Positions 1 to 18,825 of a stretch of DNA of 64,000 bases are shown one piece after another. Position 1 is the stretch's first letter. Each line of letters opens with the position of its first letter. The position numbers and the translations under genes were made by a program. The notes beneath the pieces were generated by a model, which saw only the letters and a list, made by a program, of their open reading frames with translations, was not told where the DNA came from and ran no database searches. The DNA comes from a phage, in the sequence record PV467749.1. One strand, given 5' to 3'.

Positions 1-939
1 GAAGATAACAGTAGTGATTGTCAATTGTATGAAGAGAAAGGTACTGGAAAAGTTTTTATCACTGGTAACACGAAGGCATTCACTGGTGTAACTGATAGAA
101 AAACTTTGTGGACGGACTGTACTACGTGGATAACATCAAGTGGTATTAATGTTTCTGATATAAAATACATGAGTAGTTTTTATGATATGAAGGTGAATTT
201 GATAACAAACGATGGTACATTGTATTGTTGTGGAGCTAACAATATATCGAACATATCATCATTTGGTGATGGCACAAACATTAATTCTTTTAACACATTC
301 AAAAGAGTAGATACTATAACTTCGGTTAAAAAGGCTGTTGGTAACATTTATTTGCGAGAAGATAATACTTTATGGGGTTGTGGTTTTAACTATTACTACC
401 AGTTGGGCACGGGTAATCAAACTTCTATTACTGGGGTGACGATGATTTCTTCGGATGTTATAGATTTTAATGTAAGTTATCAGAGTACATTTTTTATCAA
501 ATCGGATAATAATTTGTACGCTTGTGGTAAACAGTTCGGTGCACAATATGGGAACGAATTTGGTACAGGTGGTACTTCCTCTTCTACTGATATACAATAT
601 AAAACTCCGACATTATTGAGTTCAGGAGTTTATACTCTATATACTTGTGTTGGTAACATGGCATCACATATTGTCAAAGCAGATGAAGTTCTATATGCTT
701 CTGGATCGAATAGGTTTGGGCAATTAGGTGTTGGTAATAATAATAATCAGTACTCCTATACTCCTTCATATACTTCGTTTAATACTTCGTGTAATTTGGT
801 ACGCACTCCATCTGGTTCACTTATACTTACTGACACTTCGAAGTTATATTATTCGGGTGCTTCATTTGTAGTAATGGGTGGTGGTGCTGGACAGAACGTT
901 CTTAATTATACCGAAGTCGATATGTCATTTGTGCAGTAA
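1..939 (+). CDS. RCC1-like beta-propeller repeat protein, array member 1 (5' end outside window)
   Basis: Frame is open from nt 1 (no stop upstream of ORF 25..939); RCC1-type blades YQLGTGNQ, RFGQLGVGNN. Confidence 0.8.
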   Translation, partial: EDNSSDCQLYEEKGTGKVFITGNTKAFTGVTDRKTLWTDCTTWITSSGINVSDIKYMSSFYDMKVNLITNDGTLYCCGANNISNISSFGDGTNINSFNTFKRVDTITSVKKAVGNIYLREDNTLWGCGFNYYYQLGTGNQTSITGVTMISSDVIDFNVSYQSTFFIKSDNNLYACGKQFGAQYGNEFGTGGTSSSTDIQYKTPTLLSSGVYTLYTCVGNMASHIVKADEVLYASGSNRFGQLGVGNNNNQYSYTPSYTSFNTSCNLVRTPSGSLILTDTSKLYYSGASFVVMGGGAGQNVLNYTEVDMSFVQ

Positions 940-1012
940 ATTAATATGCCAGTACTTGAGTACTGGCTTTTCTTTTTGTATTAAATATAGTATAATGAAT
1001 AAGGGAGGAAAT
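940..1012 (+). promoter_or_regulatory. array cassette: terminator hairpin + TAAATA-N3-TATAAT + SD
   Basis: gccagtac-ttga-gtactggc 948-967 then T-run; ttaaatatagtataat; aagggagg before ATG 1013. Confidence 0.7.
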
Positions 1013-2122
1013 ATGTTACCTTTTGTAAGAATGGTTAAGTACGGGAATATTGCACCAGTACCGAAAAAAATAAAGAAAGTTATAGCAGGATATGATAATT
1101 TATATGTACTATATGGTGATGGTTCGCTATATGGTTGTGGAATCAATAACTATCAACAGTTAAATATTGATGGAACTGCTACACAAAATAATTGGGTACT
1201 AATTACCAATGGTGTTAGTAATGCATGGGCTGGTGGATACAATATTTTATATTTGAAAGAAGATAAATTTATAATGCACGGAACTAATGTCTCATTAGGT
1301 TTAGGAAATACTACAATTCCATTAGGTGGAGTAGATGTAACTTCTTCATTCCCAGATATCTCTAATATTAAAATGATATCCATTGGTTTTGATTCAATGC
1401 ACTATGTTAGTGCTGATGGTACAACTGTATATGGAAGAGGTATGAACACAAATGGTTCTGTTGGTTCAGGTAGTACTTACTCACAGAGTACTTTCACTTC
1501 AGTACTGAATAATGGAACTAATCAGGTTATTGATATATTTGGTAACGTTAATAATACAGTGCTTCTAACATCGAATGGTGAGCTTCGAGCATGTGGGACA
1601 AGTGCTTATGGTTCTATAGGAAATGAAACTGGTAAGTGGACATCGTTTGGTTTAAAATTATCTGGCACTAAAATAATGGGTGGTAATGGGTATAGTACGC
1701 TTGCATATACAAATTCGGGAATGTACCACTCAGGGTGGCAGTTAAATGGGGAACTAGGAAATGGTTTAAATACTAACGTACAGGTATATCCATTTCAATT
1801 TAACTCTAAAACGATAGATAGCAAGATAGATAAAATTGCCAAATCATCATCTGGGTCATATGTTAACATGTACTCAACAACAGAAGGAAAGATATATACG
1901 ACAGGTTCGTTTGGTAAAAACGGGTCAACTACTGCATTGAATTTGTTCACCAATACATTAACACTTATAAATTACAATCCAGATACCGCCTCGTTGTATA
2001 CGTGCACAAACTTCAGTGTTGTGTATGATGGTAATGAAACTATTGCTGTAAGTGGTAGTCCTACATATGTACCAGGGGGCGTTGCCGCTAATAGATGGAC
2101 TACAATTCCATTACCCAAGTAA
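1013..2122 (+). CDS. RCC1-like repeat protein, array member 2 (VKYGN subtype)
   Basis: Starts MLPFVRMVKYGNIAPVP at ATG 1013 after SD. ORF-track start 878 reads through the cassette and was rejected. Motif WQLNGELGNG; C-term WTTIPLPK. Confidence 0.85.
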   Translation: MLPFVRMVKYGNIAPVPKKIKKVIAGYDNLYVLYGDGSLYGCGINNYQQLNIDGTATQNNWVLITNGVSNAWAGGYNILYLKEDKFIMHGTNVSLGLGNTTIPLGGVDVTSSFPDISNIKMISIGFDSMHYVSADGTTVYGRGMNTNGSVGSGSTYSQSTFTSVLNNGTNQVIDIFGNVNNTVLLTSNGELRACGTSAYGSIGNETGKWTSFGLKLSGTKIMGGNGYSTLAYTNSGMYHSGWQLNGELGNGLNTNVQVYPFQFNSKTIDSKIDKIAKSSSGSYVNMYSTTEGKIYTTGSFGKNGSTTALNLFTNTLTLINYNPDTASLYTCTNFSVVYDGNETIAVSGSPTYVPGGVAANRWTTIPLPK

Positions 2123-2190
2123 TACTATGCCAGTACTTGATACTGGCTTTTTTTTGATTAAATATAGTATAATGAATAAAGGAGGGAATT
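2123..2190 (+). promoter_or_regulatory. array cassette: terminator + promoter + SD
   Basis: gccagta-cttga-tactggc 2129-2147 + T8; TAAATA 2159-2164, TATAAT 2168-2173, aaaggaggg 2178-2186. Confidence 0.7.
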
Positions 2191-3318
2191 ATGTTACCTT
2201 TTGTTAGAATGTTTGATTATGGGAATATAATCGAAGTTAATAATATAAAGAAAAGTGTTGTTAGTTACACTCTTGAAATGTTTCTAATGCAAGATGGCAC
2301 TGTATATGCACACGGTGAAGATTCAAACTATAATGCGGGTTTAAGTACACAGTTTGTATCGTTAGGAGCAGTTCAACAAATCACAACTGAAGTTGATGAC
2401 TTATGGTTAGGATCGTTTTCCGTTGTTATTAAAGGTGATAAAATATATGGTTCAGGTTCAACATATGCATTCACGAATTCTAATACTTTCCAACAAGGAT
2501 ATACTGACTGGGCTGTGTATTTCACTGGTATAGATGTTACCCAAATTAAAAAAATGTTATGTGGTTATACAGCATTTATATTAATGAAAGACGGAACACT
2601 TTATGGAAGAGGATGGAATCGAAGTGGTGCATTAGGTTTAGGACATAAAAATTATGTTTCAGCGTGGACTGTACTTGACACTAATGTGGATAATATATTT
2701 GGCGGTTACCTTGGCGATACATTGTTTAAGATTAAAAACGATGGAACTGTATATGGTTCAGGTTCAAATAACAGCTTTCAAGTTAAAGCAACATCGGGTG
2801 ATGCAACCACATTTGTTCCATTGTTTGATGATATATCTTATGATATAAAATGCAGTTTTGTTTCTGGTGTTGGTTTTGTAATGATAACATCTGATAATAA
2901 AATATATACAACTGGAACTACTTTTGCTGGTAGTGGTGCACATAGTAAAGTTTTTGATGTTGGTTTTACTATAGGTGATATGAGTAATATATATCATCCT
3001 GATTCGTTGGACTATTCGACTAGTGTTGTATTTTTAATTAATGCAGATACAAACAAACTAATAGCAACTGGGCATACCCCATTTACGGGAAGTAGTTCAA
3101 GTTCCCTTCCATATTTTACAGCATTTCAAGAATTCAATTTTACATCGTTCAATTCGAATACACGATATAGTGGGTCTTTATACTGGAATACATTTTACGA
3201 AGGTAATAATGTATGGATGAATGGATATAATCCTGAAAATACGGGTGGAAAGAATTTCTCATTGTGTTCAATACCGTTAGATACTATTATTACTAAGCAA
3301 ATTGATTTACCTTTTTGA
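2191..3318 (+). CDS. RCC1-like repeat protein, array member 3 (FDYGN subtype)
   Basis: MLPFVRMFDYGN start; GWNRSGALGLGHKN; C-term QIDLPF. Confidence 0.85.
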   Translation: MLPFVRMFDYGNIIEVNNIKKSVVSYTLEMFLMQDGTVYAHGEDSNYNAGLSTQFVSLGAVQQITTEVDDLWLGSFSVVIKGDKIYGSGSTYAFTNSNTFQQGYTDWAVYFTGIDVTQIKKMLCGYTAFILMKDGTLYGRGWNRSGALGLGHKNYVSAWTVLDTNVDNIFGGYLGDTLFKIKNDGTVYGSGSNNSFQVKATSGDATTFVPLFDDISYDIKCSFVSGVGFVMITSDNKIYTTGTTFAGSGAHSKVFDVGFTIGDMSNIYHPDSLDYSTSVVFLINADTNKLIATGHTPFTGSSSSSLPYFTAFQEFNFTSFNSNTRYSGSLYWNTFYEGNNVWMNGYNPENTGGKNFSLCSIPLDTIITKQIDLPF

Positions 3319-3388: not shown

Positions 3389-4510
3389 ATGTTACCTTTT
3401 GTTAGAATGTTTGATTATGGAAATGAAGTACCTGATCCTAGTTCGGGATTTCGAATAATAAGTACAGGAGACGCATTACTATTAATTACTAAGAGTGGTG
3501 ATTTGTGGGTGCGTGGTTATAACCGTTATGGTAAGTTAGGTATAGGTAATAACACCACTACCTATGTACTTGATTGGACGAAGGTTAGAAGTGATGTAAA
3601 GTTTGCGTGTGGTAGTGGATTGGTAACAGTTATCTTTACTAAGGATAATCGCATATTGTACTGTGGTGACAAATGGTTTGAAACGGGTGGTGTTGGTAGT
3701 GCACAGATTTTCACATGGACAGATGTTACGCATCAATTTGGGGTAGTAGATTTGAGTACTGTAAGGGATATGAAAATATCTTATTACGCGATTGGGTTAG
3801 TTACTACTAATAATCAATTATACGCTAAGGGATTTGATAATAACCTATCATTTGGTGGGGTTACTAATAAGGCGACTGCTGTGTTTATTGCGAATAATGT
3901 ACAAGAGTTGTATACGAGTTTAGTTAGTACTATCTACGTTGATACAAGTGGTATATTACATCGTTGTGGCATGAGTGATAACGGTTCGTTGGGTAATAAT
4001 GGTAGTTTAACTTCGTATCTAAGTTATTCACAGACTGGTATGACGATTAAGGACATTGGAATGATGACTACGAACACTGGGTTATTATATACTGATTCTA
4101 GTGCACGCACGAGATATTTTATTGCTGGACAGAACTTGAATAAACAGATGGGTAATGCGGCGGGTGCGAGTGCCATTACGAGTACTTACACAGAGCTTTC
4201 TGGTAGTGTTGATAAGTTTTCTTCTTTATGGGAGAATGATGGGATATTGATGACATTTGCTGTGGGTAAGAACACTAATCAGTTATTTTATGCTGGGATG
4301 AATACTTTTCATGCGAGTGGTGGTGAATCTTCATATGCGGATACATATGAGTTAGTCCCGATGGTGTTTAATGACATACAGGAAGTGTTATGTGCACAGC
4401 GTTTATCGGTGGTACATGATTCTACGAAGTGGTATTACTGTGGTGATGCTAATTCAATGTATGGTTTACCGGACGTAAGTACTTTTACTGAGTTACCGTT
4501 GCCCTTTTAA
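3389..4510 (+). CDS. RCC1-like repeat protein, array member 4
   Basis: MLPFVRMFDYGN start; GYNRYGKLGIGNNT; C-term FTELPLPF. Confidence 0.85.
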   Translation: MLPFVRMFDYGNEVPDPSSGFRIISTGDALLLITKSGDLWVRGYNRYGKLGIGNNTTTYVLDWTKVRSDVKFACGSGLVTVIFTKDNRILYCGDKWFETGGVGSAQIFTWTDVTHQFGVVDLSTVRDMKISYYAIGLVTTNNQLYAKGFDNNLSFGGVTNKATAVFIANNVQELYTSLVSTIYVDTSGILHRCGMSDNGSLGNNGSLTSYLSYSQTGMTIKDIGMMTTNTGLLYTDSSARTRYFIAGQNLNKQMGNAAGASAITSTYTELSGSVDKFSSLWENDGILMTFAVGKNTNQLFYAGMNTFHASGGESSYADTYELVPMVFNDIQEVLCAQRLSVVHDSTKWYYCGDANSMYGLPDVSTFTELPLPF

Positions 4511-4581: not shown

Positions 4582-5763
4582 ATGTTACCTTTTGTTAGAA
4601 TGTTTGATTATGGGAACGTCGTTGAGCCACCTGTGGGTACACGTTATACCTGTAGTGACTATAGTGCGACTTATAGTTTAATAAAGGATGGTGTGTTATA
4701 TGTATCTGGGATGAATAACTATTATCAGTTAGGTAATAACACTAACGTAACACGTTACAACGAGTGGTTAAAAGTTCCAGAGACTGATAGTGTTAAGTTT
4801 TGTAGTACTGGTTATAGTCAGACAATGTATCTGACTAACAATGGTAGGATAATGATAGCAGGTGAAGATCCTACTTCCAGTGCGACTTCGGTAAGTGTAA
4901 AGGTTTGGACGGATATAACTTCTAGATTTCGTGCAGTTGATACTAAAAAGATTGTTTATATTTCAATAGAACGCTTTGGTGTAATGATGATCATGGAAGA
5001 TGGTTCAGTATGGGCGTGTGGTGTTGATAATACTGGTTGGAGTGGACAAGGGAGTAAGACTGTTGGTTTCTTTACTTTCAGACAAATATACACCGGAAGT
5101 GCAGGAAGTGCAGTTGCTTGTACTGCTGGTACTGGTACTGCGAGAATTCTGTTAGCTAATGGAACAATCTTGTCCTCTGGTACTAATACATATCATCAAT
5201 GTAATGCTAGTACTAATCCGGCTGTTCTAACATTCACTGAATCATTCCCTGGGGTTGATCCTTCATTGATATATCAAATCAAGATGTGTAATAACAACTG
5301 TATTATATTTTTGAGTGATAAGAGATATTACGGTACTGGCTGGGGAAGTTTTGGTGCATTGGGTGATGGTGATATTACGGGTTCGAATAATAAATTCTAT
5401 GCAGGTACATTGTCAGTTGCTCCTAAAAACATGCGTGCTTATATGTCGTATCTATGTAGTTCTTCTGGGGATTCTAGTATGTACATAGGCGATGATAATT
5501 TCATATACACCTGCGGTTATCGTGGGAGGAACTTAATAAATGCCACTACAGATATTGGTACGTTCACGAAATGCATTCAAAGTGCACAAGGATACAAGAA
5601 TGGACTTATATATAGTGGGAATTATTGTGCTGTAGTTTTTGATCCAGATTTGGGTTCAGGAATGTCATATGCGGTTTCATCACCAAAATTGAATTCTCCA
5701 GCACCACAGGCTAGTGTTCCAGCATTGGGTATGAGTTCGTTACAATCTATCATTTTACCATAA
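4582..5763 (+). CDS. RCC1-like repeat protein, array member 5
   Basis: MLPFVRMFDYGN start; MNNYYQLGNNTN, GWGSFGALGDGD. Confidence 0.85.
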   Translation: MLPFVRMFDYGNVVEPPVGTRYTCSDYSATYSLIKDGVLYVSGMNNYYQLGNNTNVTRYNEWLKVPETDSVKFCSTGYSQTMYLTNNGRIMIAGEDPTSSATSVSVKVWTDITSRFRAVDTKKIVYISIERFGVMMIMEDGSVWACGVDNTGWSGQGSKTVGFFTFRQIYTGSAGSAVACTAGTGTARILLANGTILSSGTNTYHQCNASTNPAVLTFTESFPGVDPSLIYQIKMCNNNCIIFLSDKRYYGTGWGSFGALGDGDITGSNNKFYAGTLSVAPKNMRAYMSYLCSSSGDSSMYIGDDNFIYTCGYRGRNLINATTDIGTFTKCIQSAQGYKNGLIYSGNYCAVVFDPDLGSGMSYAVSSPKLNSPAPQASVPALGMSSLQSIILP

Positions 5764-5837: not shown

Positions 5838-6968
5838 ATGTTACCTTTTGTTAGAATGTTTGATTATGGGAATACAGTGGCTGCTCCCACTGGTATAAAG
5901 GATTTCCAAGCAAATGGAAGCCACTGTATGGCACTAACATATAGTGGTGAGATGTGGGCTTATGGTACAAGTACAAGTGGATCAATGGGAACCGGATTCA
6001 CGGTGGGTGCTGCTGATAAGGGTTGGTACAAGTCTAACATTAGTAATGTTAAATCATTCAGTTCTAATATGCAGACTAGCACAGTGGCTTTGACAAATGA
6101 TGATAGAGTGCTAGTTTGTGGCTCAACTAGATTTGACAAATTCAGTACTCCAGATATTGCATCATCTAACCTTGATTGGTTGGATGTTACTGATCATATT
6201 CCACAGGAAGTTATTGATGCTGGGATGAAGCAAGTTATTAACCACGCATATTATGTTGCCATTTTTACTGAAAACAATCTATTATATAGTGTGGCATTAT
6301 CTTTGGGTAATACTAGTACTATAATAGATAGAACATGGCGAAGAAATACATTTGGTGATATACAAGTTGAACGTGTTGTTTCGTTGACACAAACCCCAAG
6401 TGGTCCTTTGTGTATAGTTCAAGATGCTGCCGGATACCAGTATGGTATTGGATATAATGGTAATAAGATTATTGATAATACTTCCACTAATTCATATTCT
6501 GTATATACCAAAATGGGTACACTTCCTTACAATGAATTTGCCATATCGAATAGCGGGAAATTCAGTTCAGCGGTATTATCAGATGGGAGAAGTGTTTATA
6601 GTGGTACATTTCCAAAGTCATTCAATGATAGTTTTGGTTCATTTTTGAAAGTTGGTGCGGTATCAAATACTGTGTTTGGTTTAGATGCAAAAAATATGCG
6701 TGGTCAATATGGTCAAAATCAATTACCAATTGCGTCGGCTGATAACAATGCAAGTAATGGCGTTGTGAGCCTTCGTAATGTTCCAGCGGGAACACAAACG
6801 AAAGACATTCGATTTATATGCGGAAATGATGTAAAGAACGTTTATATCATATACACAAATGAAGACGGCATTAGTTCATTTTATGGATTGGGACCAAACT
6901 TTGATCAAAATTCCTCAGCATATGCACAATTCGTCAAAGTGGATTTGCCAGGGGCATTACTAAATTAA
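5838..6968 (+). CDS. divergent propeller-repeat protein, array member 6
   Basis: MLPFVRMFDYGN at internal Met of ORF 5823; weaker repeats (GTSTSGSMGTG); C-term FVKVDLPG. Confidence 0.8.
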   Translation: MLPFVRMFDYGNTVAAPTGIKDFQANGSHCMALTYSGEMWAYGTSTSGSMGTGFTVGAADKGWYKSNISNVKSFSSNMQTSTVALTNDDRVLVCGSTRFDKFSTPDIASSNLDWLDVTDHIPQEVIDAGMKQVINHAYYVAIFTENNLLYSVALSLGNTSTIIDRTWRRNTFGDIQVERVVSLTQTPSGPLCIVQDAAGYQYGIGYNGNKIIDNTSTNSYSVYTKMGTLPYNEFAISNSGKFSSAVLSDGRSVYSGTFPKSFNDSFGSFLKVGAVSNTVFGLDAKNMRGQYGQNQLPIASADNNASNGVVSLRNVPAGTQTKDIRFICGNDVKNVYIIYTNEDGISSFYGLGPNFDQNSSAYAQFVKVDLPGALLN

Positions 6969-6978
6969 GGAGAGAAAT

Positions 6979-8181
6979 ATGTTACCTTTTGCGAGGATGG
7001 TTAAGTTCGGGAATATTGCACCAGGGCCAGAACCAATAGAGTTCTCAAATGTTTTACAACAACATTATACAAACTGTATGTATCTACATAGCCCAACTAA
7101 TACTTTATATGGTTATGGTAGTAATAACTTTTATCAATTTGGTCTTGGGAATTCAGCAGCAGTTGCGTCATTTACAGTACTTGCAACGCGATGTGCAGCC
7201 TTTTGGCTTGGTGTTCAAGGTTCATTGATGATTGATTTGGATAATAAAATATACTACACTGGGTCGGTTGGTGCATTTTCTGATTATGGAGATGCAACAC
7301 CTGTTAATGGTTATTTGAGAACATGGACTGATGTTACTGCTTCATTTAATAAAATTGGTGTTATGGCTAATATGATCAAGAGTGTATATATAGGTGAAAG
7401 TACTAGAATATTATTAACCGATGGTAGAGTAATTGCGTGTGGAAGAAATACCAATGGTGAATGTGGGTCTGGTAATCGAAATTCCATACCTACACTAACA
7501 GTTATGACTAATATGGGTGAAGTTACACATATGGCATGTTCATTACAAGGAACGCACTATATTAAATCAAATAAAAAGGCATGGTTTTGTGGTAAGGATA
7601 ACTTCGGTGAAAGTGGTTGTGGTGCTAGTTCTATGATATATTTGAACAAATATGTGATGAGTGATGTCGAACATATTAGTACTACATACGATGTTACTTG
7701 GTGGTTTACTACTGGTGGGCCTGTATATTATAGCGGGGCTAACAGTACTGGACAAGCTGGTAATGGTACGACTACATCGGTAAATCAGCTAACACCAATT
7801 AGGAACACATCGGTCACGGTTGATGTAAGTAAGTACAGTACTTTTATTTGTCCAAGTAATATGGGAAATGCATCAATTGGTGCACCTATGGCACAATACG
7901 CACCATATGTTAGAAGTAGTGGTGCTAACGGATACGGTCAAGAAGGTAATGGAACTAATACATTAGTTAGGACTTGGAATATTTTTAATCTTAATGCAAT
8001 AAGTGGTGGTTATGACAATGTTCTTATGGCATCTAAAGATTGGAGCAGAACCATAATAATTACTAAAGATTATAAATTATATGCATGTGGTGGCTGGAAT
8101 GGTAATGGTGGTAGATTGCCTGATGGCACTTATAGTATTACTACACTAACATTAATGCCAACGCAGTTATGGCAACAATAG
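6979..8181 (+). CDS. RCC1-like repeat protein, array member 7 (VKFGN subtype)
   Basis: MLPFARMVKFGNIAPGP. SD aaggagag lies 10 nt after the stop of member 6, with no cassette. GSNNFYQFGLGN, GRNTNGECGSGN, GANGYGQEGNG. Confidence 0.85.
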   Translation: MLPFARMVKFGNIAPGPEPIEFSNVLQQHYTNCMYLHSPTNTLYGYGSNNFYQFGLGNSAAVASFTVLATRCAAFWLGVQGSLMIDLDNKIYYTGSVGAFSDYGDATPVNGYLRTWTDVTASFNKIGVMANMIKSVYIGESTRILLTDGRVIACGRNTNGECGSGNRNSIPTLTVMTNMGEVTHMACSLQGTHYIKSNKKAWFCGKDNFGESGCGASSMIYLNKYVMSDVEHISTTYDVTWWFTTGGPVYYSGANSTGQAGNGTTTSVNQLTPIRNTSVTVDVSKYSTFICPSNMGNASIGAPMAQYAPYVRSSGANGYGQEGNGTNTLVRTWNIFNLNAISGGYDNVLMASKDWSRTIIITKDYKLYACGGWNGNGGRLPDGTYSITTLTLMPTQLWQQ

Positions 8182-8189
8182 GAGGAATT

Positions 8190-9299
8190 ATGTTACCTTT
8201 TGTAAGACTATTTGATTATGGGAATATTACCTCTGGTCCTAAAAATATAATTAAAGTTGGTGCTTCTACTCAAGGTCAATTCGTATTGACTGATTCACAT
8301 GAATTGTATTACATAGGCAGAAATCAAGGTGGTGAATCTGGAAATGGTAATAAAAACACGGTATCTTCTTGGACATTAGTAAGTGCAGATGTTTCTAATT
8401 TTTTCACTGGAGGACGAACACTTGTTATTATTAAAAATGACAATACGATATGGACATCAGGTGAAACATTTTGGTTCACATCATCATCAACAACTTCTTA
8501 CAGTACTACATTAGTTGATAGAACGGAGTGGTTTACAAATACAATTCCTGTGAATCAAATTGCTAATATTGTATGCAATGGTGGTGTAATATTTGTACTC
8601 AGTTCAAGTTCAGTACTCTATGGTGCTGGGGCTAATGGATACCGTGGTGTATTGGGGATTGGTTCTTCATCAATATATACATTAACACTATGTGCTTCTA
8701 ATGTGCGTAAAGTTATGTCTACTCCTAATGATAGTATGTATATTAGCATAGATAATAAGTTATATAGTTCAGGGTGGAATGACCGTGGATTACATGGCAC
8801 AGGGAACAGAACACAAGTTAACATTTGGGGACTGCGTAGTTCTGGTGTAATAGATGCAGCTATTGGTGGACATACACTCAATTACTATAATGGTACATCA
8901 TATTTCACATGTGGTACAACTCCAAACTTTCTTAGTTCAGATTCAACTACATTCAAAGCAGTTCCTGTAAGTACTTTACCTAATAATTCACCTTTGTTTA
9001 TGACAAATTCAGAGGCAACAAGCACGGCTACGCAAATTATATTAACTAGTGCATATCAGAAAGGTATTGGGGGAAACCGTGGTTTGGGATTAAACAATTC
9101 TCAAACGGGTGCTATCTATAGTGCTGCTAATTTACAATTACCTGTAGAAGTTAGTGAGATTAGTGATGTTGCTTTTAGTGACGGATTAACATCATTATTA
9201 ACCAAAGACGGGAATGTATATAGTACTGGATCGTATTACGCCATTCCAGGTGCAAGTGCAGATGTTGCAGTCTTTACTAAAATTGATTTACCAAAATAA
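8190..9299 (+). CDS. RCC1-like repeat protein, array member 8
   Basis: MLPFVRLFDYGN at ATG 8190 after taggagg; no cassette upstream; GRNQGGESGNGNKN, GWNDRGLHGTGN; C-term FTKIDLPK. Confidence 0.85.
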   Translation: MLPFVRLFDYGNITSGPKNIIKVGASTQGQFVLTDSHELYYIGRNQGGESGNGNKNTVSSWTLVSADVSNFFTGGRTLVIIKNDNTIWTSGETFWFTSSSTTSYSTTLVDRTEWFTNTIPVNQIANIVCNGGVIFVLSSSSVLYGAGANGYRGVLGIGSSSIYTLTLCASNVRKVMSTPNDSMYISIDNKLYSSGWNDRGLHGTGNRTQVNIWGLRSSGVIDAAIGGHTLNYYNGTSYFTCGTTPNFLSSDSTTFKAVPVSTLPNNSPLFMTNSEATSTATQIILTSAYQKGIGGNRGLGLNNSQTGAIYSAANLQLPVEVSEISDVAFSDGLTSLLTKDGNVYSTGSYYAIPGASADVAVFTKIDLPK

Positions 9300-9369
9300 C
9301 ATAATGCCAGTACAGAGTACTGGCTTTTCTTTTTGGTTAAATATAGTATAATGAATAAAGGAGGGAATT
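9300..9369 (+). promoter_or_regulatory. array cassette: terminator + promoter + SD
   Basis: gccagtacagagtactggc 9306-9324 + T-run; ggttaaatatagtataatgaataaaggaggg. Confidence 0.7.
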
Positions 9370-10539: not shown

Positions 10540-10612
10540 ATTTTATGCCAGTACTTGATACTGGCTTTTCTTTTTTGTATTAAATATAGTATAATGAATA
10601 AAGGAGGGAATT
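10540..10612 (+). promoter_or_regulatory. array cassette: terminator + promoter + SD
   Basis: gccagtacttgatactggc 10547-10565 + T-run; canonical promoter/SD string. Confidence 0.7.
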
Positions 10613-11792
10613 ATGTTACCTTTTGTTAGATTATTTGATTATGGGAATATTGCCCCTGTCAAAGATACTGTTGTTAAAATTAATAGTGATGAAAATTCAA
10701 TAAGCGTATTATACAGTGATGGGTCATTATATATGCGTGGACGGAAACCAATCAGCAAAAATGGGAGTTACTGGTTCATCTTTTTTGGATAGATGGGTTT
10801 TATGTCCTTATAGTGTTGATGATTTCTGGAGTTCTCTATATTGTACTATAATTAGAACAAAACAAGGGGAATTGTACTATAGTGGGACTAACTCAGTTTT
10901 TGGTATATCATCTTCGGTTTCAACATGGACTCGTTGTGAATCATATTTTGGATCTATTTCTCCGAGTTCAATAAAAGATATAAAAATAACATCATCAACC
11001 GGAACTAACAATTCCATGTTAATACTAACAAGTGACGGGCAGTTATATGGTATAGGCATGAATGGTGCAAGTGAATTGGGTACAGCAACTGCACCAATTA
11101 CATCTCCACTCTTAATTGACACTAGTGTATCTGCAATTGCATCTAGTGAAATGAGCAGAAACTTTCACTATATAAAAGATGGTATATATTATCGTTGTGG
11201 TGAGAATACTTTTTATCAATTAGGAACCGGTGATAATAAGCCTATTACTAGTTTTACTGCATTGAATCTTGGTAGTTCTCATGTAATTGCAGTACAAGCT
11301 ACACGATGGGTAACACGTTTGATTGTTCAAAGTAGTACATCTGCTTTGTCTTTAATGGCGGCTGGTTGGAACACACAGTTGACTATAGGTGGTTCTGAAA
11401 ATACTGGTATAATAAGGTCATCATTTACTACCAATCCCTATACCGATATAACAGCAAATTCATTCGATAAACTTTCACCAGTATCCTATGTTAATGCAAT
11501 AAAATCCAGTACTAACATTATTAATACGAATGGTAAGGGATATAATTCTAATGGTGCTGGTTTAGGCCGCAACGCAGTCTCTGGGAATTATGGTTCAATA
11601 TTACCAATAGAATTCTTTGATGATAGTGTTGACTTATCACATGTTGAGTGGTTTGGTACGATTGGTAATGGTTCAGTATCGGTAGTTAGTATAGGTGAGG
11701 ATTTATACTGGACTGGAAACCCTGGGTATTTTACTGAACAAGGTGAGACTGGATATATATATAAATTCAAAAAGTGCGTTCCTTTTAGATAA
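10613..11792 (+). pseudogene. RCC1-like array member 10, frame disrupted near nt 10739-10743
   Basis: ATG 10613 gives MLPFVRLFDYGNIAPVKD...SLYMRG and then hits a stop at 10790. The homologous continuation (GNQSAKMGVTGSSFLDRWVLCPYSVDDFW, compare member 9) is in the +1 frame, i.e. ORF 10716..11792. Confidence 0.7.
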
Positions 11793-11863
11793 ACACAATG
11801 CCAGTACTTGAGTACTGGCATTCTTTTTGATTAAATATAGTATAATGAATAAAGGAGGGAAAT
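11793..11863 (+). promoter_or_regulatory. array cassette: terminator + promoter + SD
   Basis: gccagtacttgagtactggc 11800-11819 + T-run; canonical string. Confidence 0.7.
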
Positions 11864-13042
11864 ATGTTACCTTTTGTTAGAATGTTTGATTATGGAAATA
11901 TTACACCTGGTGTACCAACACCAAAAGATTTCTTTTTGGATGTATCATCTGGCAAACCTACTATGTTGATGCTTTTGGATAACGGCGAAGTATGGGGTTG
12001 TAGTAATGATGGACAACTATTAGGTTTAAACACTACCGCGTCAGCATACGGTAAGCCATACTTTGTTATGGAAAATGTTAAGTTAATGTTCGCGTCAGTG
12101 TGGGGGACATTACTTATCACTAACGATAATAAAGTGAAGTACACTGGCAGACAAACCATGTTTAATGGTTCATCAAATTATTGGAGTACTTTTCAAGATT
12201 TTACAACGAAGTACACTGCTGTTGGTATTGACATAAGTACTATAGAAAAAGTTGGATTCAATACTGGTACATTATTCCTACGCACAACTAATGGTGATTT
12301 ATGGGGTCATGGAAATAACGCTAATGGTTATTTCGGAAAAGGAAATACCGTGGCGAATTACACACCAACCAAGATCAAGACTAATACATTAGATTTTTGG
12401 TTAACTAATGGGAATGCAATTGTACAAACTGGCACTAAAGAATTCTATGCTACTGGTGATAATTATTATTATCAAATGGGTGTTACGACTACTGGTAATA
12501 TAACAACATGGACACAGATTTTTAAGGACGCTACTGATGATCCTGAGTTTGAATATAATGCAATGCGAACAAGTCAAGCAACATTAATACTTTACGGTAA
12601 AGGAACTACATTCTACGCAAGTGGGAGAAACTATATGAGTTCATGGGGTGTATCTGGAGCACCAGTGGATGTTAATACTACACTATATAAAGGTACGTTA
12701 CCATTTGTACCCGGTGATTTAACATATTTTTATGCTGGTCGAGAACAAGCATATTGGACTAACTTAATCATTGATACTAATGGAGTTCTGTACATATCTG
12801 GAACAAAAGATGGGGGTGGTGGTTCAAATGCACCTATATTTGAAGTATTACCGACCCCAAGTAGTGCAGTTGGGTTCAAATGTGGCACAGCAACACGTTC
12901 TTATGCTATAATGGATTGTACTGGCAATCAATTTATGTACGCACGTGGTACAGCTTTGTCAGACCCTGCTGGCTTTACACCAATGAGTACACCATTAAAT
13001 CATACATGGACACACATAACAGATTTTAAATTTAACCGATAA
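11864..13042 (+). CDS. RCC1-like repeat protein, array member 11
   Basis: MLPFVRMFDYGN; GNNANGYFGKGN, GDNYYYQMGV. Confidence 0.85.
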   Translation: MLPFVRMFDYGNITPGVPTPKDFFLDVSSGKPTMLMLLDNGEVWGCSNDGQLLGLNTTASAYGKPYFVMENVKLMFASVWGTLLITNDNKVKYTGRQTMFNGSSNYWSTFQDFTTKYTAVGIDISTIEKVGFNTGTLFLRTTNGDLWGHGNNANGYFGKGNTVANYTPTKIKTNTLDFWLTNGNAIVQTGTKEFYATGDNYYYQMGVTTTGNITTWTQIFKDATDDPEFEYNAMRTSQATLILYGKGTTFYASGRNYMSSWGVSGAPVDVNTTLYKGTLPFVPGDLTYFYAGREQAYWTNLIIDTNGVLYISGTKDGGGGSNAPIFEVLPTPSSAVGFKCGTATRSYAIMDCTGNQFMYARGTALSDPAGFTPMSTPLNHTWTHITDFKFNR

Positions 13043-13112: not shown

Positions 13113-14288
13113 ATGTTACCTTTTGCAAGAATGGTTAAGTACGGAAACAGAGTTCCAGCACCTTCAGGTGTTATGAAGATAAGTACATCTCCATCACATA
13201 TGGGTATGTTATTTGATAGTGGTAACTTATATCTACGTGGAAATGGTGCACACTATATGCTAGGAAATAATAGCACTGCGTATGTGCAAAATGGGTGGGT
13301 ACAGTGTCCATATAAAGTTTCTAATGTTTGGTGCTTCTTTGCAGCAACAATTATACTTACGACTGACGGAGAATTTTACTTAGCTGGTCAAATGGGTTAT
13401 GTCGGTGTATCTGCATCACCAGTTCCTGGATGGACTAATATCACATCTTTATTGTCTACAATACCAGCACTTACTACAGTAGTAGATATAGCTGCTACTG
13501 AAACTACTGCATCAAATGGTGCGTTATTGATTTTGTTAAGTAATGGGGACTTATATGGGATTGGGCGTAATACAGGAGGTGCATTGGGTGTTACTGGTAG
13601 AAAAACAACGCCAATTCAGATTGCTACTGGGGTTACTATAATTGCGGGAACAACGGCTGGGGATGCTTTCCATTATGTTAAAAATAATCAATACTACAGA
13701 TGTGGGAATAACGCAAGTTACAACTTAGGATCAGGTTCTTCTAACCTTTCGACATTTACGGTAAGTACTGATATATCGGGAACAGTTATTGGTATTTCAT
13801 GTACTACATTAACGACTTCAGTACTTACATCTAATAGAAATAATATTAATGTATATACGGCTGGAAAAAACACTGATTATTGTTTAGGAATAGGGTATGG
13901 CGACACTACTAGTATCATGAGTCCATTTAGTGCCACTCCCGCAATTAGTGGTATTATACCAGATGCTGGGTCGATGAACAATCACAGTTTGAATTATTTT
14001 ATAATGGCAATGACACAGAATGGTAAACTTTATACATGTGGTAGTGGTGTTCCTCTTGGTTGGCCTGTTACTACTGCATCAGAAAGATCTTATTACCACC
14101 AGGTACAATATGAGGATATGGATGTTGCACCAGATGTTAATGCATTTTCAGTTCAAGGTGGTTCTGGTGTGTTATACGCGTTAGTGGGGACTAATGAGGT
14201 GTACTGGTGTGGTAACGGGTCTATGTTTCAGGAACAGAGTCCAGGTACACAACAAGTTAAAATGAAGAAAATGATTTTACCAGAATAA
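13113..14288 (+). CDS. RCC1-like repeat protein, array member 12 (VKYGN subtype)
   Basis: MLPFARMVKYGNRVPAP at Met23 of ORF 13047; GRNTGGALGV, GNNASYNLGSG; C-term KKMILPE. Confidence 0.85.
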   Translation: MLPFARMVKYGNRVPAPSGVMKISTSPSHMGMLFDSGNLYLRGNGAHYMLGNNSTAYVQNGWVQCPYKVSNVWCFFAATIILTTDGEFYLAGQMGYVGVSASPVPGWTNITSLLSTIPALTTVVDIAATETTASNGALLILLSNGDLYGIGRNTGGALGVTGRKTTPIQIATGVTIIAGTTAGDAFHYVKNNQYYRCGNNASYNLGSGSSNLSTFTVSTDISGTVIGISCTTLTTSVLTSNRNNINVYTAGKNTDYCLGIGYGDTTSIMSPFSATPAISGIIPDAGSMNNHSLNYFIMAMTQNGKLYTCGSGVPLGWPVTTASERSYYHQVQYEDMDVAPDVNAFSVQGGSGVLYALVGTNEVYWCGNGSMFQEQSPGTQQVKMKKMILPE

Positions 14289-14367: not shown

Positions 14368-15717
14368 ATGTTACCTTTTGTTAGAATGTTTGATTATGGG
14401 AATACAGTAGATGTTCCAACTGTAAAGAAATTCGACTCCATTGGTATGGGTCATGATAGGAATGGTGGTGGTAATTGGTTTGGTGCAATATTAGCATCAA
14501 ATGGAAATTTATATGGTATTGGTCAAACAAAATATGTTTCTTTTGGTATAACACCAACCAATGGTACAGGAATTGAATTAGTACGAAAAAATGTAAACAA
14601 TTTTTGGCTACTATCAAATGGAATAATAGTTAAAGATAATGATGGTTCATATCATTTTTGTGGTGTATATGCAAATGGAATATTCACACATTCAAGTATA
14701 ACTACAGCACCTTTTATAACAAATGGTTTTATAAATGTATCTTCTTATTTTTCTAACGTAGGTGAAGTTGTGGAAATGGTATTCTGTGGTGGATATGATA
14801 AAGGTCCAGCAACATCATTAACCCCAGCATACACTTCAAAATATAGTTGTATTTTGGCAGCATTGAACACTAATGGTGAAATCTGGTATATGGGTTTGTC
14901 GATACAAGGTTTAATAAACAACTCCACATCAGATTACTACTTTACTTCTTTTACTAAAGATAATCAATTGACACAAAAAGCAGTTTCATTAAGATGCACA
15001 ATAGACATGTCACATAATAATGTGTATTTTGTTGGTAATAGACCTGTACTTTATGCCAAATTAGAAGATGGTACAATCGTAGGCAAGGGATATAATATAC
15101 GATATGGTATACAAAAACCAGCTAGTACAAACCAAGTGATTAAAACGTGGACTACAGTGGCTGTAATCGGAACAGCAGATGATTTTGATGCAACAAACGA
15201 AGGCATGATGTACTGCTCAAATTCACAACTATATCGCTGTGGTAATGGTGGTGGTTTTTCTTTCTGGAATGGTACAAGTAGTGTGTATTATATGGGCTAC
15301 AACGTTGGTATGTTTCTAATCGGTGCGAATGACGTCAACCGTGTAGCGGGTGGTTTTAACGTCCTAACTACAGGGATTAAAGATGATGTAGGTATAAATG
15401 TACCAACTTCATCCAGTACCAAAATACGAATGAACTACTGTGGAACTGTAATTTTTGAACCCGGAACAACATCAATATATAAAGCACATGGTGTTTATAG
15501 TGATTACTATGCTAGTCCTTCATGGCAAGCGGGAGCAGTCGCTTCATTTACATATGAAGACATTGGTATTAAAATCAAAGATGCTATGTATGTTGGTGGT
15601 ACTCTTGGGTTTACAACATATGGATTATTAGTGGTTAGTACTGAAGGTAAGGTATATTGGAGAGGTGTGTACAACGGTGTAACATATAAAACACTCACAG
15701 AAATACATTTGTTGTAA
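14368..15717 (+). CDS. divergent propeller-like protein, array member 13 (449 aa)
   Basis: MLPFVRMFDYGN start. The body is poorly RCC1-like; membership rests on the N-terminus and the cassette. Confidence 0.75.
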   Translation: MLPFVRMFDYGNTVDVPTVKKFDSIGMGHDRNGGGNWFGAILASNGNLYGIGQTKYVSFGITPTNGTGIELVRKNVNNFWLLSNGIIVKDNDGSYHFCGVYANGIFTHSSITTAPFITNGFINVSSYFSNVGEVVEMVFCGGYDKGPATSLTPAYTSKYSCILAALNTNGEIWYMGLSIQGLINNSTSDYYFTSFTKDNQLTQKAVSLRCTIDMSHNNVYFVGNRPVLYAKLEDGTIVGKGYNIRYGIQKPASTNQVIKTWTTVAVIGTADDFDATNEGMMYCSNSQLYRCGNGGGFSFWNGTSSVYYMGYNVGMFLIGANDVNRVAGGFNVLTTGIKDDVGINVPTSSSTKIRMNYCGTVIFEPGTTSIYKAHGVYSDYYASPSWQAGAVASFTYEDIGIKIKDAMYVGGTLGFTTYGLLVVSTEGKVYWRGVYNGVTYKTLTEIHLL

Positions 15718-15787: not shown

Positions 15788-16939
15788 ATGTTACCTTTTG
15801 CAAGAATGGTTAAGTACGGGAATATTTCACCTGTTCCTGCAACACCAACTATAAAAGATTTTAAGATTGGTTTTACCCATGAAGTGTTATTGGACAGTGC
15901 AGGTGATGTGTGGGGTATTGGATATAATACCGCTGGACAGTTGGGATTTCTGGATGCTAACACAAATTCAATAGGAATGTGGTCTAAGATACATGAGAAT
16001 GTTAGATTAATTGGCGTTACTGCCAAATATACTGTAGTTGTTACAAATGATAATAGAATACTTTACGCCGGAAATAACTTAATTTCTAGTACTACAACGC
16101 TTGGGTGGAACGATATAACGTCCAGTATGGGAGAGGTTGCAGTGGATAGTATAGATACATTATATTGCACAGATGGAATGATGCATATTAAAACTGCTGA
16201 TGGCTCTTTATATGCATATGGACGTAATATGAACGCGAACGCTGGAGTTACAGGCGTTTCTGGCGTTATTAGTGTTGCAACTAAAGTTAATGGTTTACCA
16301 TCGGCAGTGAAGGATATACGATATACGTTTAGTTATGGTTCAGTACTATGCCAATTTGATACCACTTCGGTATATGGATGGGGAAGAAATGTCAATGGTG
16401 AATTAGGTCAGGGGAATGCAGCCGCAGTTCCTGCCCCATACCTATTGGCGGGAGCTTCTATTGTTATAGGTACTTCTTATAATGCTACTGCCATTGTTTC
16501 TGGTACTGGAACGTTAGTTACATGTGGTGGACAAAATAATGGTCAGTTAGGTAATGGTATTACTACTGCTGGTAATGTATACATATATGGTGCTAGGTCA
16601 TACCCTGGCGATCTTAATAATATAAGAAGTCCAGTAGATTGTAGTACAACTTATACTTCCGCATTTATGAGTACAGATGGTATATATTACACGGGTTCGA
16701 ACCGAAGTGTTTTTGGTGGTGCGAGTGGTTCTGCTACTGTTGCATTATATACTAAATGTAGTGATTTGCCAATATTATATTCCAATATAACTCAGTGGGG
16801 TAGTGGTACTATTGGTGGGGCGATATGTAGCAGAACTGAATTATATCAGTGTGGTACAGGTAGATACATTGCCGGAGATGGACAGAACGCAACTAGGTAT
16901 GGGTTTAGAAAGACACCATTACCTTGGGATGTTTATTGA
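15788..16939 (+). CDS. RCC1-like repeat protein, array member 14 (VKYGN subtype)
   Basis: MLPFARMVKYGNISPVP at ATG 15788; GRNVNGELGQGN, GQNNGQLGNG (best RCC1 match in the array). Confidence 0.9.
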   Translation: MLPFARMVKYGNISPVPATPTIKDFKIGFTHEVLLDSAGDVWGIGYNTAGQLGFLDANTNSIGMWSKIHENVRLIGVTAKYTVVVTNDNRILYAGNNLISSTTTLGWNDITSSMGEVAVDSIDTLYCTDGMMHIKTADGSLYAYGRNMNANAGVTGVSGVISVATKVNGLPSAVKDIRYTFSYGSVLCQFDTTSVYGWGRNVNGELGQGNAAAVPAPYLLAGASIVIGTSYNATAIVSGTGTLVTCGGQNNGQLGNGITTAGNVYIYGARSYPGDLNNIRSPVDCSTTYTSAFMSTDGIYYTGSNRSVFGGASGSATVALYTKCSDLPILYSNITQWGSGTIGGAICSRTELYQCGTGRYIAGDGQNATRYGFRKTPLPWDVY

Positions 16940-16945
16940 AATAAT

Positions 16946-16965
16946 GCCAGTACTCAAGTACTGGC
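16946..16965. terminator. bidirectional hairpin between convergent genes
   Basis: gccagtac-tcaa-gtactggc, A-rich before and T-run after. Confidence 0.7.
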
Positions 16966-16972
16966 ATTTCTT

Positions 16973-17623
16973 TTACATATTATATAATGTGAATGCAGTC
17001 ACTTTACCAGTTGTTGTTAGTTCATTATAAAGATACTCCAAGATTCTCGCACACTCTAAGTATATCTCGATATCATCATGAATAAGTGAGTACTGAAATA
17101 GCTGTTCTTCAGGTAATTTGTATTGACTTCCTTTTAATGAATTGAGAATATCTTTCACATCATCAAGTACTGGGTAAAGTACGAAATCTTCATCATATTT
17201 TGAAGCAATAAATTCAAATCCACCACCATCAGTACTAGATATACCAATCAGTACTTTATCAATCAAGTTAATGTTTATATAACGGTTGTGATTTGGGTGA
17301 ATTGAAATCTCAAACATACGAGTACTGTTACAATCAACATCAATATACAAATATACATCATTGAATTTATAAGTTAAACAACCGTACTCAAGAAAATCAG
17401 AACAAATAATTGATGAGTTTTTTCTTGTCTCTGCGTAATGCATCTTGATATTCTTTTCACGCATAAGTAATTCGAACTTTGCACTAAACTTGCCACCAGC
17501 AAGATAGTTAGTATTAGGACGTTTGTAACTTGCAACTGGTCGGTGGGATGATGTAAAGTATTTTTTTGTGAATCGTTTCTGTTTAGTGAAATATTCTTGA
17601 TAGAACTTACTTCTTTTATTCAT
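16973..17623 (-). CDS. hypothetical protein, EE-x-FQ family member inserted in the array on the opposite strand
   Basis: 216 aa ORF; C-terminal PEEQLFQYSLIHDD motif shared with 10 other ORFs in the window. Confidence 0.75.
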   Translation of the reverse strand: MNKRSKFYQEYFTKQKRFTKKYFTSSHRPVASYKRPNTNYLAGGKFSAKFELLMREKNIKMHYAETRKNSSIICSDFLEYGCLTYKFNDVYLYIDVDCNSTRMFEISIHPNHNRYININLIDKVLIGISSTDGGGFEFIASKYDEDFVLYPVLDDVKDILNSLKGSQYKLPEEQLFQYSLIHDDIEIYLECARILEYLYNELTTTGKVTAFTLYNM

Positions 17624-17700
17624 GAGTACCTCAATTAAATCGCTGTAAAATTGTACATTATAAAATGATTAAATAAAGTATAACACAAGGAGATTTTATC
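17624..17700. promoter_or_regulatory. divergent promoter region
   Basis: The + side has gattaaataaagtataac + aaggag before ATG 17701. The minus side has ttttataat upstream of ATG 17623. Confidence 0.5.
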
Positions 17701-18825
17701 ATGTTACCTTTCGTATTGTTATTTGATTATGGGAACGAAAAACAAGAAAGTTCTTATGATGTTAGTGTATATGGAAACAATAACTACATTTTAAATAAAC
17801 AAACTGGAAACCTTTTTGCATCCGGTGCTGCGGCATTCATGGGTGATAACACAGTTAAGTATTATATTACCCAAATAGAATCAAATGTTCATAGCTGTGA
17901 GATAGGTTTCCTATCATCATGGATAATTAAGAAGGACAAAACTGTTTTCATTTTAGGAAACAAAAGCAGTATAGGATTAACTGGTTCGACAACATCATGG
18001 TTCGAAATTACAAATTTATTTTCTGCTGTTCCTGAAATATGGGACAACCTATTTGAATGTAAAGTTCAATTGGGATATAACTGTATACGTGTTATGACAC
18101 CACTAGGATCAATCTATGCGATTGGTACAAACACTTATGGTGCATTGGGTACTGGTACTACATCCTCATCAACTTCGTTCGTTAAAAGTGGTGCTGTGGA
18201 TGCTGTACGCATGGAATCAACAGAACGTTCAGTGTTCTATCAAAACAGTTCTGGACAATGGTTTGGATGTGGTGATAACACATATGGTATACTAGGTCTA
18301 GGAACTACCGCGAGTCGTGTAAACTCATACACCGCACCAGTATGGACTAATGCAGAAGCTGTTAGCTTCTCTAACCGTGGGATCATATACAGCCTCAATG
18401 GTACTCTATACTCATGTGGTGACAAAGTTAATGGTCAGCTAGGGGATGGATATACACAAAGCATAGACGCTGCCAGGAGCACACCATACACCATAGGAAC
18501 CGCATTCCAAATTGGTAAGGCAATAACATCAGCTACACAAGCATCAGCCAACGTATTCATTGGTAAAGATAATAAGTTCTATGGTACTGGTAGTATTGCT
18601 GCTGGTATAAATGGTAGTACTAGTGCTGCATTAAGTAAAGTTACTGCGTTATCAGCAGCACTACCACCTGACATTACATACAATGATATTATAACATTTA
18701 ATACAGGGACCGTAACTTTTATTCAAGCAAAAGGACAACTATATTATGTTGGTAGAAGAACTTACATAGATAATAGTTCAGACGTTACCACACAGTTCAG
18801 TGTAATTGGTGGCTTAGATAATTAA
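17701..18825 (+). CDS. RCC1-like repeat protein, array member 15/16 (last)
   Basis: MLPFVLLFDYGN; GTNTYGALGTGT, GDNTYGILGLGT, GDKVNGQLGDG. Confidence 0.85.
   Translation: MLPFVLLFDYGNEKQESSYDVSVYGNNNYILNKQTGNLFASGAAAFMGDNTVKYYITQIESNVHSCEIGFLSSWIIKKDKTVFILGNKSSIGLTGSTTSWFEITNLFSAVPEIWDNLFECKVQLGYNCIRVMTPLGSIYAIGTNTYGALGTGTTSSSTSFVKSGAVDAVRMESTERSVFYQNSSGQWFGCGDNTYGILGLGTTASRVNSYTAPVWTNAEAVSFSNRGIIYSLNGTLYSCGDKVNGQLGDGYTQSIDAARSTPYTIGTAFQIGKAITSATQASANVFIGKDNKFYGTGSIAAGINGSTSAALSKVTALSAALPPDITYNDIITFNTGTVTFIQAKGQLYYVGRRTYIDNSSDVTTQFSVIGGLDN

Follow-up and report, generated by a model that had tools for sequence, protein, structure and literature searches.

A conserved N-terminal peptide shared by shuffled RCC1-like propeller genes in an Asteriusvirus-group jumbo phage and by virion-associated proteins of related phages

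The sequence record PV467749.1 contributes a 64,000-nucleotide stretch of phage DNA (the whole of which is referred to below as the window), and positions 1 to 18,825 of it carry an array of 15 + strand genes, numbered here g01 to g15, which encode RCC1-like proteins. By megablast this array region belongs to the Asteriusvirus group of jumbo coliphages (121Q, PBECO4, phAPEC6). We report that the proteins of the array share a 12-residue N-terminal peptide, hereafter the tag, with the consensus M-[L/I]-P-F-x-R-[M/I/L]-x-x-Y-G-N, ahead of strongly diverged bodies which are predicted to be seven-bladed propellers; that the same tag heads proteins of unrelated folds in related phages; that tagged proteins are associated with virion proteomes; and that the bodies are shuffled between genomes with a junction at the end of the tag. 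Taken as a whole, we consider it fairly probable, though well short of settled, that the tag is a portable virion-docking element placed on a shuffled repertoire of binding modules.

Fold, shuffling and conservation

Pfam profiles of RCC1, RCC1_2 or WD40_RLD matched 14 of the 15 array genes. RCC1 and/or RCC1_2 were above the Pfam cut-off in most members, while the WD40_RLD matches, with E from 1e-7 to 1e-33, remained under the 150-bit domain cut-off of that profile. The remaining member, g13 (449 amino acids, aa), gave no match in the Pfam profile search and was recovered by phrog_4219 (E = 3e-16). A good AlphaFold2 model was obtained for one array member, g14, using an alignment of 24 sequences (predicted local distance difference test score, pLDDT, 91.7; predicted template modelling score, pTM, 0.89), and in this model 27 strands spanning residues 22 to 376 form seven four-stranded blades. 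Residues 1-16 showed a pLDDT below 50 and no secondary structure, as against more than 90 for the remainder of the protein. Foldseek returned UVR8, RPGR-RLD, HERC2-RLD and RCC1 as the top matches of the g14 model (E 3e-19 to 7e-14, TM 0.65-0.76), with about 15-19% identity to the eukaryotic RLDs. All of the top 50 PDB matches were eukaryotic RLDs, and BLIP-II, which has the same broad fold, was outside these 50. Among viral models g14 matched the same jumbo-phage family, and an RCC1-like propeller was also found in an annotated tail fibre of Pseudomonas phage Littlefix. The AlphaFold2 model of g13 was poor (pLDDT 59, shallow alignment), with propeller-like blades in its N-terminal half, and was used only to note that it has no structure ahead of residue 19. 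As modelled, then, the array bodies are seven-bladed RCC1-like propellers and the 12-residue tag lies outside the propeller fold. The last strand of g14 (residues 369-376) carries the C-terminal F-x-K-x-x-LP motif and appears, in the model, to close the ring as the fourth strand of the blade opened by the three N-terminal strands. The initial annotation had proposed an RCC1/propeller fold, which Pfam, the g14 model and Foldseek bear out. One of its two readings made the conserved termini velcro strands; this fails at the N-terminus, where g14 residues 1-16 are unstructured and the same peptide heads non-propeller folds, and holds by strand count for the C-terminal motif, which forms the last beta-strand. 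The array proteins are neutral to acidic (isoelectric point, pI, 4.8-8.5; net charge -11 to +3), lack a basic tail, and contain 25-32% serine, threonine and asparagine (S+T+N) with few charged residues.

A near-identical intergenic cassette of about 70 nt precedes ten of the 14 complete gene starts, and diverged versions of it precede two more. Across the first 20 kb of the window the best match was phage WPEC3, at about 99% identity, and no single place covered more than 39% of this region; the neighbouring 24 kb were covered to 89-100% at 98-99% identity in eight phages. This difference in coverage shows that variation is concentrated in the array, the genome being conserved otherwise. When the tagged proteins of the window, WPEC3, EJP2, phAPEC6 and 121Q were clustered at >= 60% identity, we obtained 30 body types in the five genomes, the order of which differed between genomes: body type 1, for example, is second in the window and in WPEC3, eighth in EJP2 and twelfth in phAPEC6. 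The comparison of g04 (start at 3389) with EJP2_506 located a recombination junction just past the tag, the two genes being about 99% identical from about codon 15 on and only about 60% identical across the tag, ribosome-binding site, promoter box and hairpin. Such a pattern indicates that the tag-plus-cassette block is genome-specific and homogenised, that the bodies are exchangeable, and that the junction lies at the tag end. Within the limits of sequence comparison, both body shuffling and a junction at the end of the tag are thus shown. Orthologous bodies gave a ratio of nonsynonymous to synonymous substitution rates (dN/dS) of 0.14-0.34 wherever dS exceeded 0.1, so that the bodies are under purifying selection, as working genes with occasional pseudogenes. 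Orthologues of the array genes in Asteriusvirus and Rak2-like phages are 60-99% identical and sit at the same locus. Furthermore, 121Q contains a 68-aa remnant of an array gene which is different from g10, the frameshifted member in the window, and the two together suggest birth-and-death turnover in the array.

We then compared conservation of the tag at the level of peptide and of DNA. The 13 full-length paralogs of the window had a mean pairwise identity of 0.83 in the first 12 alignment columns and of 0.19 in the bodies, whose strong divergence the initial annotation had rightly pointed out, and the best 12-column window outside the tag reached 0.35. Within this genome the fraction of identical codons in the 12 tag codons was 0.80, compared with 0.47 expected from codon usage, and the rare codons GGG and CCT are fixed. 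The phages GAP32 of Cronobacter, Munch of Salmonella, fHe-Yen9-04 of Yersinia and fENko-Kae01 of Klebsiella retain the motif M-[L/I]-P-F-x-[R/K/I]-[I/M/L]-x-x-Y-G-N despite many synonymous changes (CCA/CCG/CCT, TTT/TTC, AGA/AGG/CGT and GGN), and the tagged genes of these four phages often overlap their upstream neighbour and have no cassette. Likewise, two window genes without a cassette (starts at 6979 and 8190) keep the tag. The fetched loci held 161 distinct M[L/I]PF-initiated open reading frames (ORFs) of >= 150 aa, 142 of them with the full motif. Positions 6, 10, 11 and 12 were strongly conserved across these 161 ORFs, positions 5 and 7-9 were variable, and positions 1-4 are invariant through the way in which the set was collected. 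Since the motif is kept through synonymous changes across genera, also where the promoter cassette is missing, and since conserved positions alternate with the free positions 5 and 7-9, it is the peptide that is under selection. As read from codons and residues, conservation is therefore found both in the peptide, across genera, and in the DNA, within the genome, and it is the tag peptide on which selection is shown to act across genera.

Tagged proteins of other folds and their presence in virion proteomes

The tag is not confined to propellers of the RCC1 type. In fENko-Kae01 the tagged protein ENKO_515c is ConA/LamG-like and matches Laminin_G_3 (E = 5e-9), and the tagged Munch_544 matches Gly_rich_2 (E = 1.4e-5). 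A search of IMG/VR with a degenerate DNA pattern for the tag gave 48 stretches, the multi-hit ones all being on contigs of 350-380 kb. These jumbo contigs encode tagged Kelch propellers (E = 1.5e-32), tagged Laminin_G_3 proteins (E = 2e-12), a tagged 667-aa fusion of RCC1 and Kelch, and also tagged proteins with no Pfam match. Profile matches thus show that the tag is independent of fold and occurs on several unrelated folds. The LamG relatives were assigned to PHROGs annotated as baseplate or virion structural proteins. Lone matches of the tag pattern on small IMG/VR contigs fell in ORFs of 5-60 aa or in unrelated proteins and were set aside as chance. It may also be noted that a second tag variant, MLPFPIISNT(N/K), which lacks Y-G-N, is found in the Eneladusvirus / Serratia phage BF group at the start of RCC1-like and other proteins, often next to the YGN form.

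Published virion proteomes were examined for tagged proteins. By electrospray ionization tandem mass spectrometry (ESI-MS/MS) gp003, 005, 006, 007, 009, 010, 549 and 551 have been detected in the phAPEC6 virion (PMC7247149). All eight of these proteins start with MLPF[A/G]RM.KYGN, and 8 of the 14 tagged proteins of phAPEC6 are in the virion set (hypergeometric P = 3e-5). Pectobacterium phage CBB is without any RCC1 genes and has eleven tagged genes (CBB_144, 247, 536, 537 and 548-554), the products of nine of which are annotated as structural (hypergeometric P = 1e-7). The structural proteins of CBB which were singled out as absent from GAP32 are 144, 247, 536, 537, 551 and 552 (PMC5259590). 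We found the tag on all six of these CBB-specific structural proteins, two of them encoded outside the array: CBB_144 is flanked by anaerobic ribonucleotide reductase genes and CBB_247 lies between recombination and endonuclease genes. In fENko-Kae01, for which the data are spectral counts only, 17 spectra were assigned to the tagged glycine-rich protein and 2-3 to each of three RCC1 members. Combined together, these data show that tagged proteins are associated with virion proteomes.

Virion docking and the alternative explanations

We propose that each gene would encode the 12-residue tag, a short proline-rich flexible linker and a seven-bladed propeller closed by its own C-terminal strand, and that the tag would direct or dock its carrier protein into the phage particle. 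Because residues L2, F4, R6, a hydrophobic residue at position 8 and Y10 alternate and are followed by a G-N turn, the tag may bind a common virion component by beta-strand addition; we infer both that the tag causes virion incorporation and what the nature of its docking target might be. With the same tag fused in this clade to RCC1 propellers, Kelch propellers, ConA/LamG-like lectin domains and a glycine-rich domain, the bodies, which are under purifying selection, would constitute a diversified set of binding surfaces, and the 5' cassette together with the tag DNA would supply the homology through which bodies are swapped, gained and lost, owing to which close relatives carry different sets in different orders. 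A shared docking peptide presenting variable binding surfaces was the other reading offered in the initial annotation, and it gains support from the several folds, the virion enrichment and the selection on the peptide. As to location, the modules would act as accessory adhesins exposed on the virion exterior, possibly on the 'hairy' fibres. For such an outside location we would give slightly less than an even chance, and an internal location seems to us clearly less probable than that. Outside display is favoured by the lectin-like and propeller modules and their S+T+N-rich, low-charge composition with a pI of 4.8-8.5, by the LamG relatives in baseplate and virion PHROGs and the RCC1-like propeller in an annotated tail fibre, and by the fact that the tag-rich CBB and phAPEC6 are both 'hairy' phages. 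Several points weigh against the docking proposal. The association of tag and virion is a correlation drawn from published proteomes; some of the 'structural protein' labels of CBB may stem from homology and not from direct mass spectrometry; two tagged Kelch proteins of CBB were undetected; the counts are low (1-5 peptides in phAPEC6, 2-3 spectra for the RCC1 members in Kae01); and the Kae01 sample, which was not gradient-purified, also contained non-structural proteins. On the structural side, low pLDDT does not prove disorder, and C-terminal ring closure rests on strand order and counting.

If docking were to take place inside the head, the tag could be a capsid-targeting sequence (CTS) of the T4 type, so that its carriers would be loaded into the prohead core and ejected along with the DNA, serving as effectors directed at the host or as anti-defence binders. 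This we hold to be unlikely, though by no means negligible. The internal proteins of T4 are a highly diverse set with only a short N-terminal CTS in common (PMC3012670), and the layout found here matches it in that a short tag stands at the N-terminus, the cargo folds are unrelated and the locus varies between strains; these phages also encode a T4-like prohead core protease (CBB_255, Peptidase_S77), phAPEC6 particles show an inner body of unexplained composition, and the copy number of each paralog is low. However, the tag has no similarity to the T4 CTS, and by inspection there is no conserved Glu within or just after it for (L/I)-x-E cleavage, the tag being followed by IAPVP, TVAAP, ITSGP and similar residues. 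The cargo is lectin-like, Kelch or RCC1, rich in S/T/N/G and low in charge (pI 4.8-8.5), which is more surface- or fibre-like than DNA-embedded, rigid 40-kDa propellers would be awkward to eject, and the placement of LamG relatives in baseplate or virion structural PHROGs also argues against internal loading. The database names of the array proteins suggest another internal role, that of DNA-condensation or inner-body organisers, which was proposed in the phAPEC6 paper (PMC7247149) and with which detection in virions is consistent. The name is a transfer from eukaryotic RCC1, and the net charge of -11 to +3 and lack of a basic tail argue against DNA binding; moreover, a hypervariable strain content is unlike an essential packaging role, lectin-like and Kelch proteins have the tag in common with the propellers, and CBB manages without RCC1 genes altogether. 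Apart from the name, nothing supports the published idea of 'DNA condensation', and we regard such a role as very improbable.

The remaining alternatives deny the tag a docking function. RCC1-type propellers close with strands from both termini, and by inspection the alternation in the tag is beta-strand-like, with the G-N turn resembling half an RCC1 repeat, so that the conserved N-terminus could be a velcro strand which closes the propeller. In the AlphaFold2 model of g14, however, the blades are completed from residues 22-376 and residues 1-16 are left out as unstructured; an identical tag stands on ConA-like, glycine-rich and Kelch proteins; and a structural strand would not be expected to be conserved at 0.83 identity when the other blades are at 0.19. 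The g14 model and the presence of the tag on other folds led us to reject this possibility, to which we attach hardly any weight. Alternatively, conservation might be confined to DNA or RNA, the first 36 nt being a promoter, translation-initiation or recombination cassette which encodes a functionless peptide. The nearly invariant synonymous sites and fixed rare codons of this genome fit such a cassette, as does the homogenised block of cassette and tag with a junction just after it. On the other hand, amino acids are kept across genera while codons vary, the tag persists in genes without the cassette, and the conserved positions 1-4, 6 and 10-12 are interspersed with the free positions 5 and 7-9. 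Pure DNA-level conservation was accordingly rejected as most improbable, because the homogenisation within the genome which the codon test reveals does not explain conservation across genera.

Returning to the portable docking tag, a wider form of this proposal would take MLPF...YGN as a general virion-loading or display signal of the jumbo clade comprising Asteriusvirus, Mimasvirus, Eneladusvirus and the Munch/Kae01 group, the paralogs competing for few docking sites and so giving a bet-hedging mixture of modules; we offer it as a speculative extension with the odds against it. If this wider form is true, each particle would sample a mixture from a recombining pan-repertoire of dozens of cassettes, as an adhesin or injected-effector system. 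With the docking proposal, a testable model would replace the misleading annotation "DNA condensation protein". The tag would explain the diversity of strain-specific virion proteins, as in the six CBB-specific ones. It would also be a ready means of placing foreign proteins on or in the particles of jumbo phages, a 12-residue peptide which could load or display arbitrary proteins much as the T4 CTS is used. Finally, the hypervariable cassette locus may determine host interaction in phages under development for therapy.

Array layout, neighbouring loci and known systems

The array total of 15 comes from 14 + strand ORFs with an MLPF start and one further member, g01 (1..939, +), which is cut by the window start. 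The 5' end of g01, including the tag, lies before the window; its frame is open from base 1 and Pfam RCC1 matches it with E = 1e-9. The WPEC3 orthologue of g01 has 382 aa, the N-terminus MLPFVRMFDYGN and the C-terminus ...EVDMSFLQ. The following genes, all on the + strand, are g02 (1013..2122; 369 aa; tag MLPFVRMVKYGN, C-terminus IPLPK), g03 (2191..3318; 375 aa; tag MLPFVRMFDYGN, C-terminus IDLPF), g04 with the junction described above (3389..4510; 373 aa), g05 (4582..5763; 393 aa) and g06, which has a diverged cassette upstream (5838..6968; 376 aa). The two members that keep the tag in the absence of an upstream cassette are g07 (6979..8181; 400 aa; tag MLPFARMVKFGN), starting 10 nt past the g06 stop, and g08 (8190..9299; 369 aa), starting 8 nt past the g07 stop. 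Then come g09 (9370..10539; 389 aa), g10 (10613..11792), g11 (11864..13042; 392 aa), g12 (13113..14288; 391 aa), g13, the most diverged member (14368..15717), g14 (15788..16939; 383 aa), in which the modelled propeller occupies residues ~20-383 behind an unstructured tag and linker (1-16), and g15 (17701..18825; 374 aa), which has the tag variant MLPFVLLFDYGN and a diverged upstream region. The reading frame of g10 is broken about 40 codons in by a frameshift of one base: the tag and 59 codons share a frame, the body ORF (10716-11792) lies in another, and the same frameshift is present in WPEC3. g10 is likely a pseudogene; it may be one shared with WPEC3 or, less likely, a case of programmed frameshifting. 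Between g14 and g15 lies an unrelated - strand gene (16973-17623; 216 aa; phrog_34359, function unknown), which is also found in WPEC3 and has a hairpin of the array type (16943-16968) at its 3' end. A bidirectional terminator-like hairpin (18830..18856) ends the array against convergent - strand genes. The initial annotation had counted 16 paralogs, one more than the actual 15, of which one is cut by the window start and one frameshifted, and had described a single head-to-tail + strand series, which is right as to strand and is broken by the - strand gene at 16973-17623. The size range of 369-449 aa and the 14 MLPF starts given there are correct, apart from an L in place of R at position 6 of the gene at 17701, and so is the division into nine FDYGN and five VK[Y/F]GN tags, although IAP continues in only three of the five VK-type genes. 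The C-terminal endings of a hydrophobic residue, any residue and LP are present in about 10 of the 14 genes, with minor deviations.

The cassette has the general order of a G+C-rich hairpin (GCCAGTAC-loop-GTACTGGC), a T-run, TTAAATATAGTATAAT, AAAGGAGG and ATG. In the example at 940..1012 (+) the hairpin GCCAGTAC..GTACTGGC and its T-run are terminator-like (948-967) and are followed by TTAAATATAGTATAAT (981-996), AAGGGAGG and ATG. Further + strand repeats of the ~70-nt unit precede the starts at 2191, 3389, 4582, 9370, 10613, 11864, 13113, 14368 and 15788, and altered versions precede those at 5838 and 17701. The 16-mer TTAAATATAGTATAAT occurs in ten exact copies, all within the array, and at <= 3 mismatches no shuffle reached 19 matches; its core recurs in the Munch and fENko-Kae01 arrays. 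A sigma-70 promoter scan gave fewer matches than it did on shuffled sequence and missed the cassette box, which has no -35 element and is only loosely like the T4-type late element reported for this clade. With a terminator hairpin, a promoter-like box and a ribosome-binding site of their own, most of the genes would be separate transcription units.

Next to the array, seven tandem paralogous genes for small membrane proteins of 104-123 aa (18862-21301, -; the first is phrog_27618, function unknown) are followed by an AAA-like ATP-binding gene (21369-22142). The membrane-protein block also adjoins the tagged array in CBB (CBB_539-547), fHe-Yen9-04 (g521-524), fENko-Kae01 (ENKO_510-514), EJP2 and phAPEC6, and this synteny is thus conserved across genera. 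In fENko-Kae01 (stretch 1-2867) and CBB (17925-20001) a few hundred bases separate the end of the array from the boundary of the long direct terminal repeat, which places the array at the end of the unique genome region in both. In the phAPEC6 record MK817115 the first two tagged genes match the last two in length and in N- and C-terminal residues (stretches 3-2360 and 8179-10536), so that the 'circular' record may hold an overlap left by assembly or a piece of a terminal repeat; our tag scan of phAPEC6 gave 13 distinct members, where the paper states 11 RCC1-like proteins. Just upstream of the array in WPEC3, in a part outside the window (stretch 8352-12754), there are about 18 small - strand ORFs, most of them of 57-75 aa, which may be tandem paralogs and another repeated family at this genome end.

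The array itself is already known: 11 RCC1-like copies, 8 of them detected by virion mass spectrometry, were reported in phAPEC6 (PMC7247149) and 13 copies in 121Q (PMC5259590). These multi-copy RCC1-like virion proteins (phAPEC6, 121Q, PBECO4, and gp001 of GAP32) are of the same family and at the same locus as the window array, and the papers treat the genes as RCC1/DNA-condensation homologues, without the shared N-terminal peptide, the other folds, the cassette or the shuffling. Our literature searches found no description of the tag, its several folds, its tie to virion proteomes, the cassette junction or the shuffling. The initial annotation knew of no phage system with this layout, which does not stand in view of the published multi-copy virion proteins and does stand for the tag and the cassette shuffling, on which we found no paper. 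The seven-bladed propeller fold is common to the array proteins and eukaryotic RLDs (RCC1, UVR8, RPGR, HERC2), but Ran-GEF and chromatin functions are a feature of eukaryotic RCC1, of which the array proteins bear only the transferred name. The GenBank and PHROG names transferred in this way from eukaryotic RLDs are 'regulator of chromosome condensation', 'DNA condensation protein', 'HERC1', 'S-layer protein' and 'X-linked retinitis pigmentosa GTPase regulator', with nucleotide metabolism as the PHROGs category.

Similar to the array, the T4 internal proteins IPI, IPII, IPIII and Alt have a short N-terminal peptide on otherwise unrelated, strain-variable virion proteins (PMC3012670). The array tag differs from the T4 CTS in sequence and in having no conserved protease site after it, and its cargo consists of binding modules of 25-75 kDa, for which an internal site would be only an inferred one, whereas the T4 cargo consists of small basic proteins. 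The T4 internal-protein locus was reportedly found by Repoila et al. in 1994 to be polymorphic between related phages. Tailspikes of the SP6/K1-5 and KP32 types have conserved N-terminal anchors on exchangeable receptor-binding proteins, and the principle is the same in the array, where a conserved short N-terminal element, here a putative docking element, precedes a variable C-terminal body which is exchanged between related phages. The array bodies are predicted to be monomeric propellers or lectin domains, unlike the trimeric beta-helix spikes, and the array is away from the tail module, beside the terminal-repeat boundary in CBB and Kae01. That variable phage proteins carry targeting or anchor peptides at the N-terminus is an established principle, of which the MLPF...YGN tag would be a further case.

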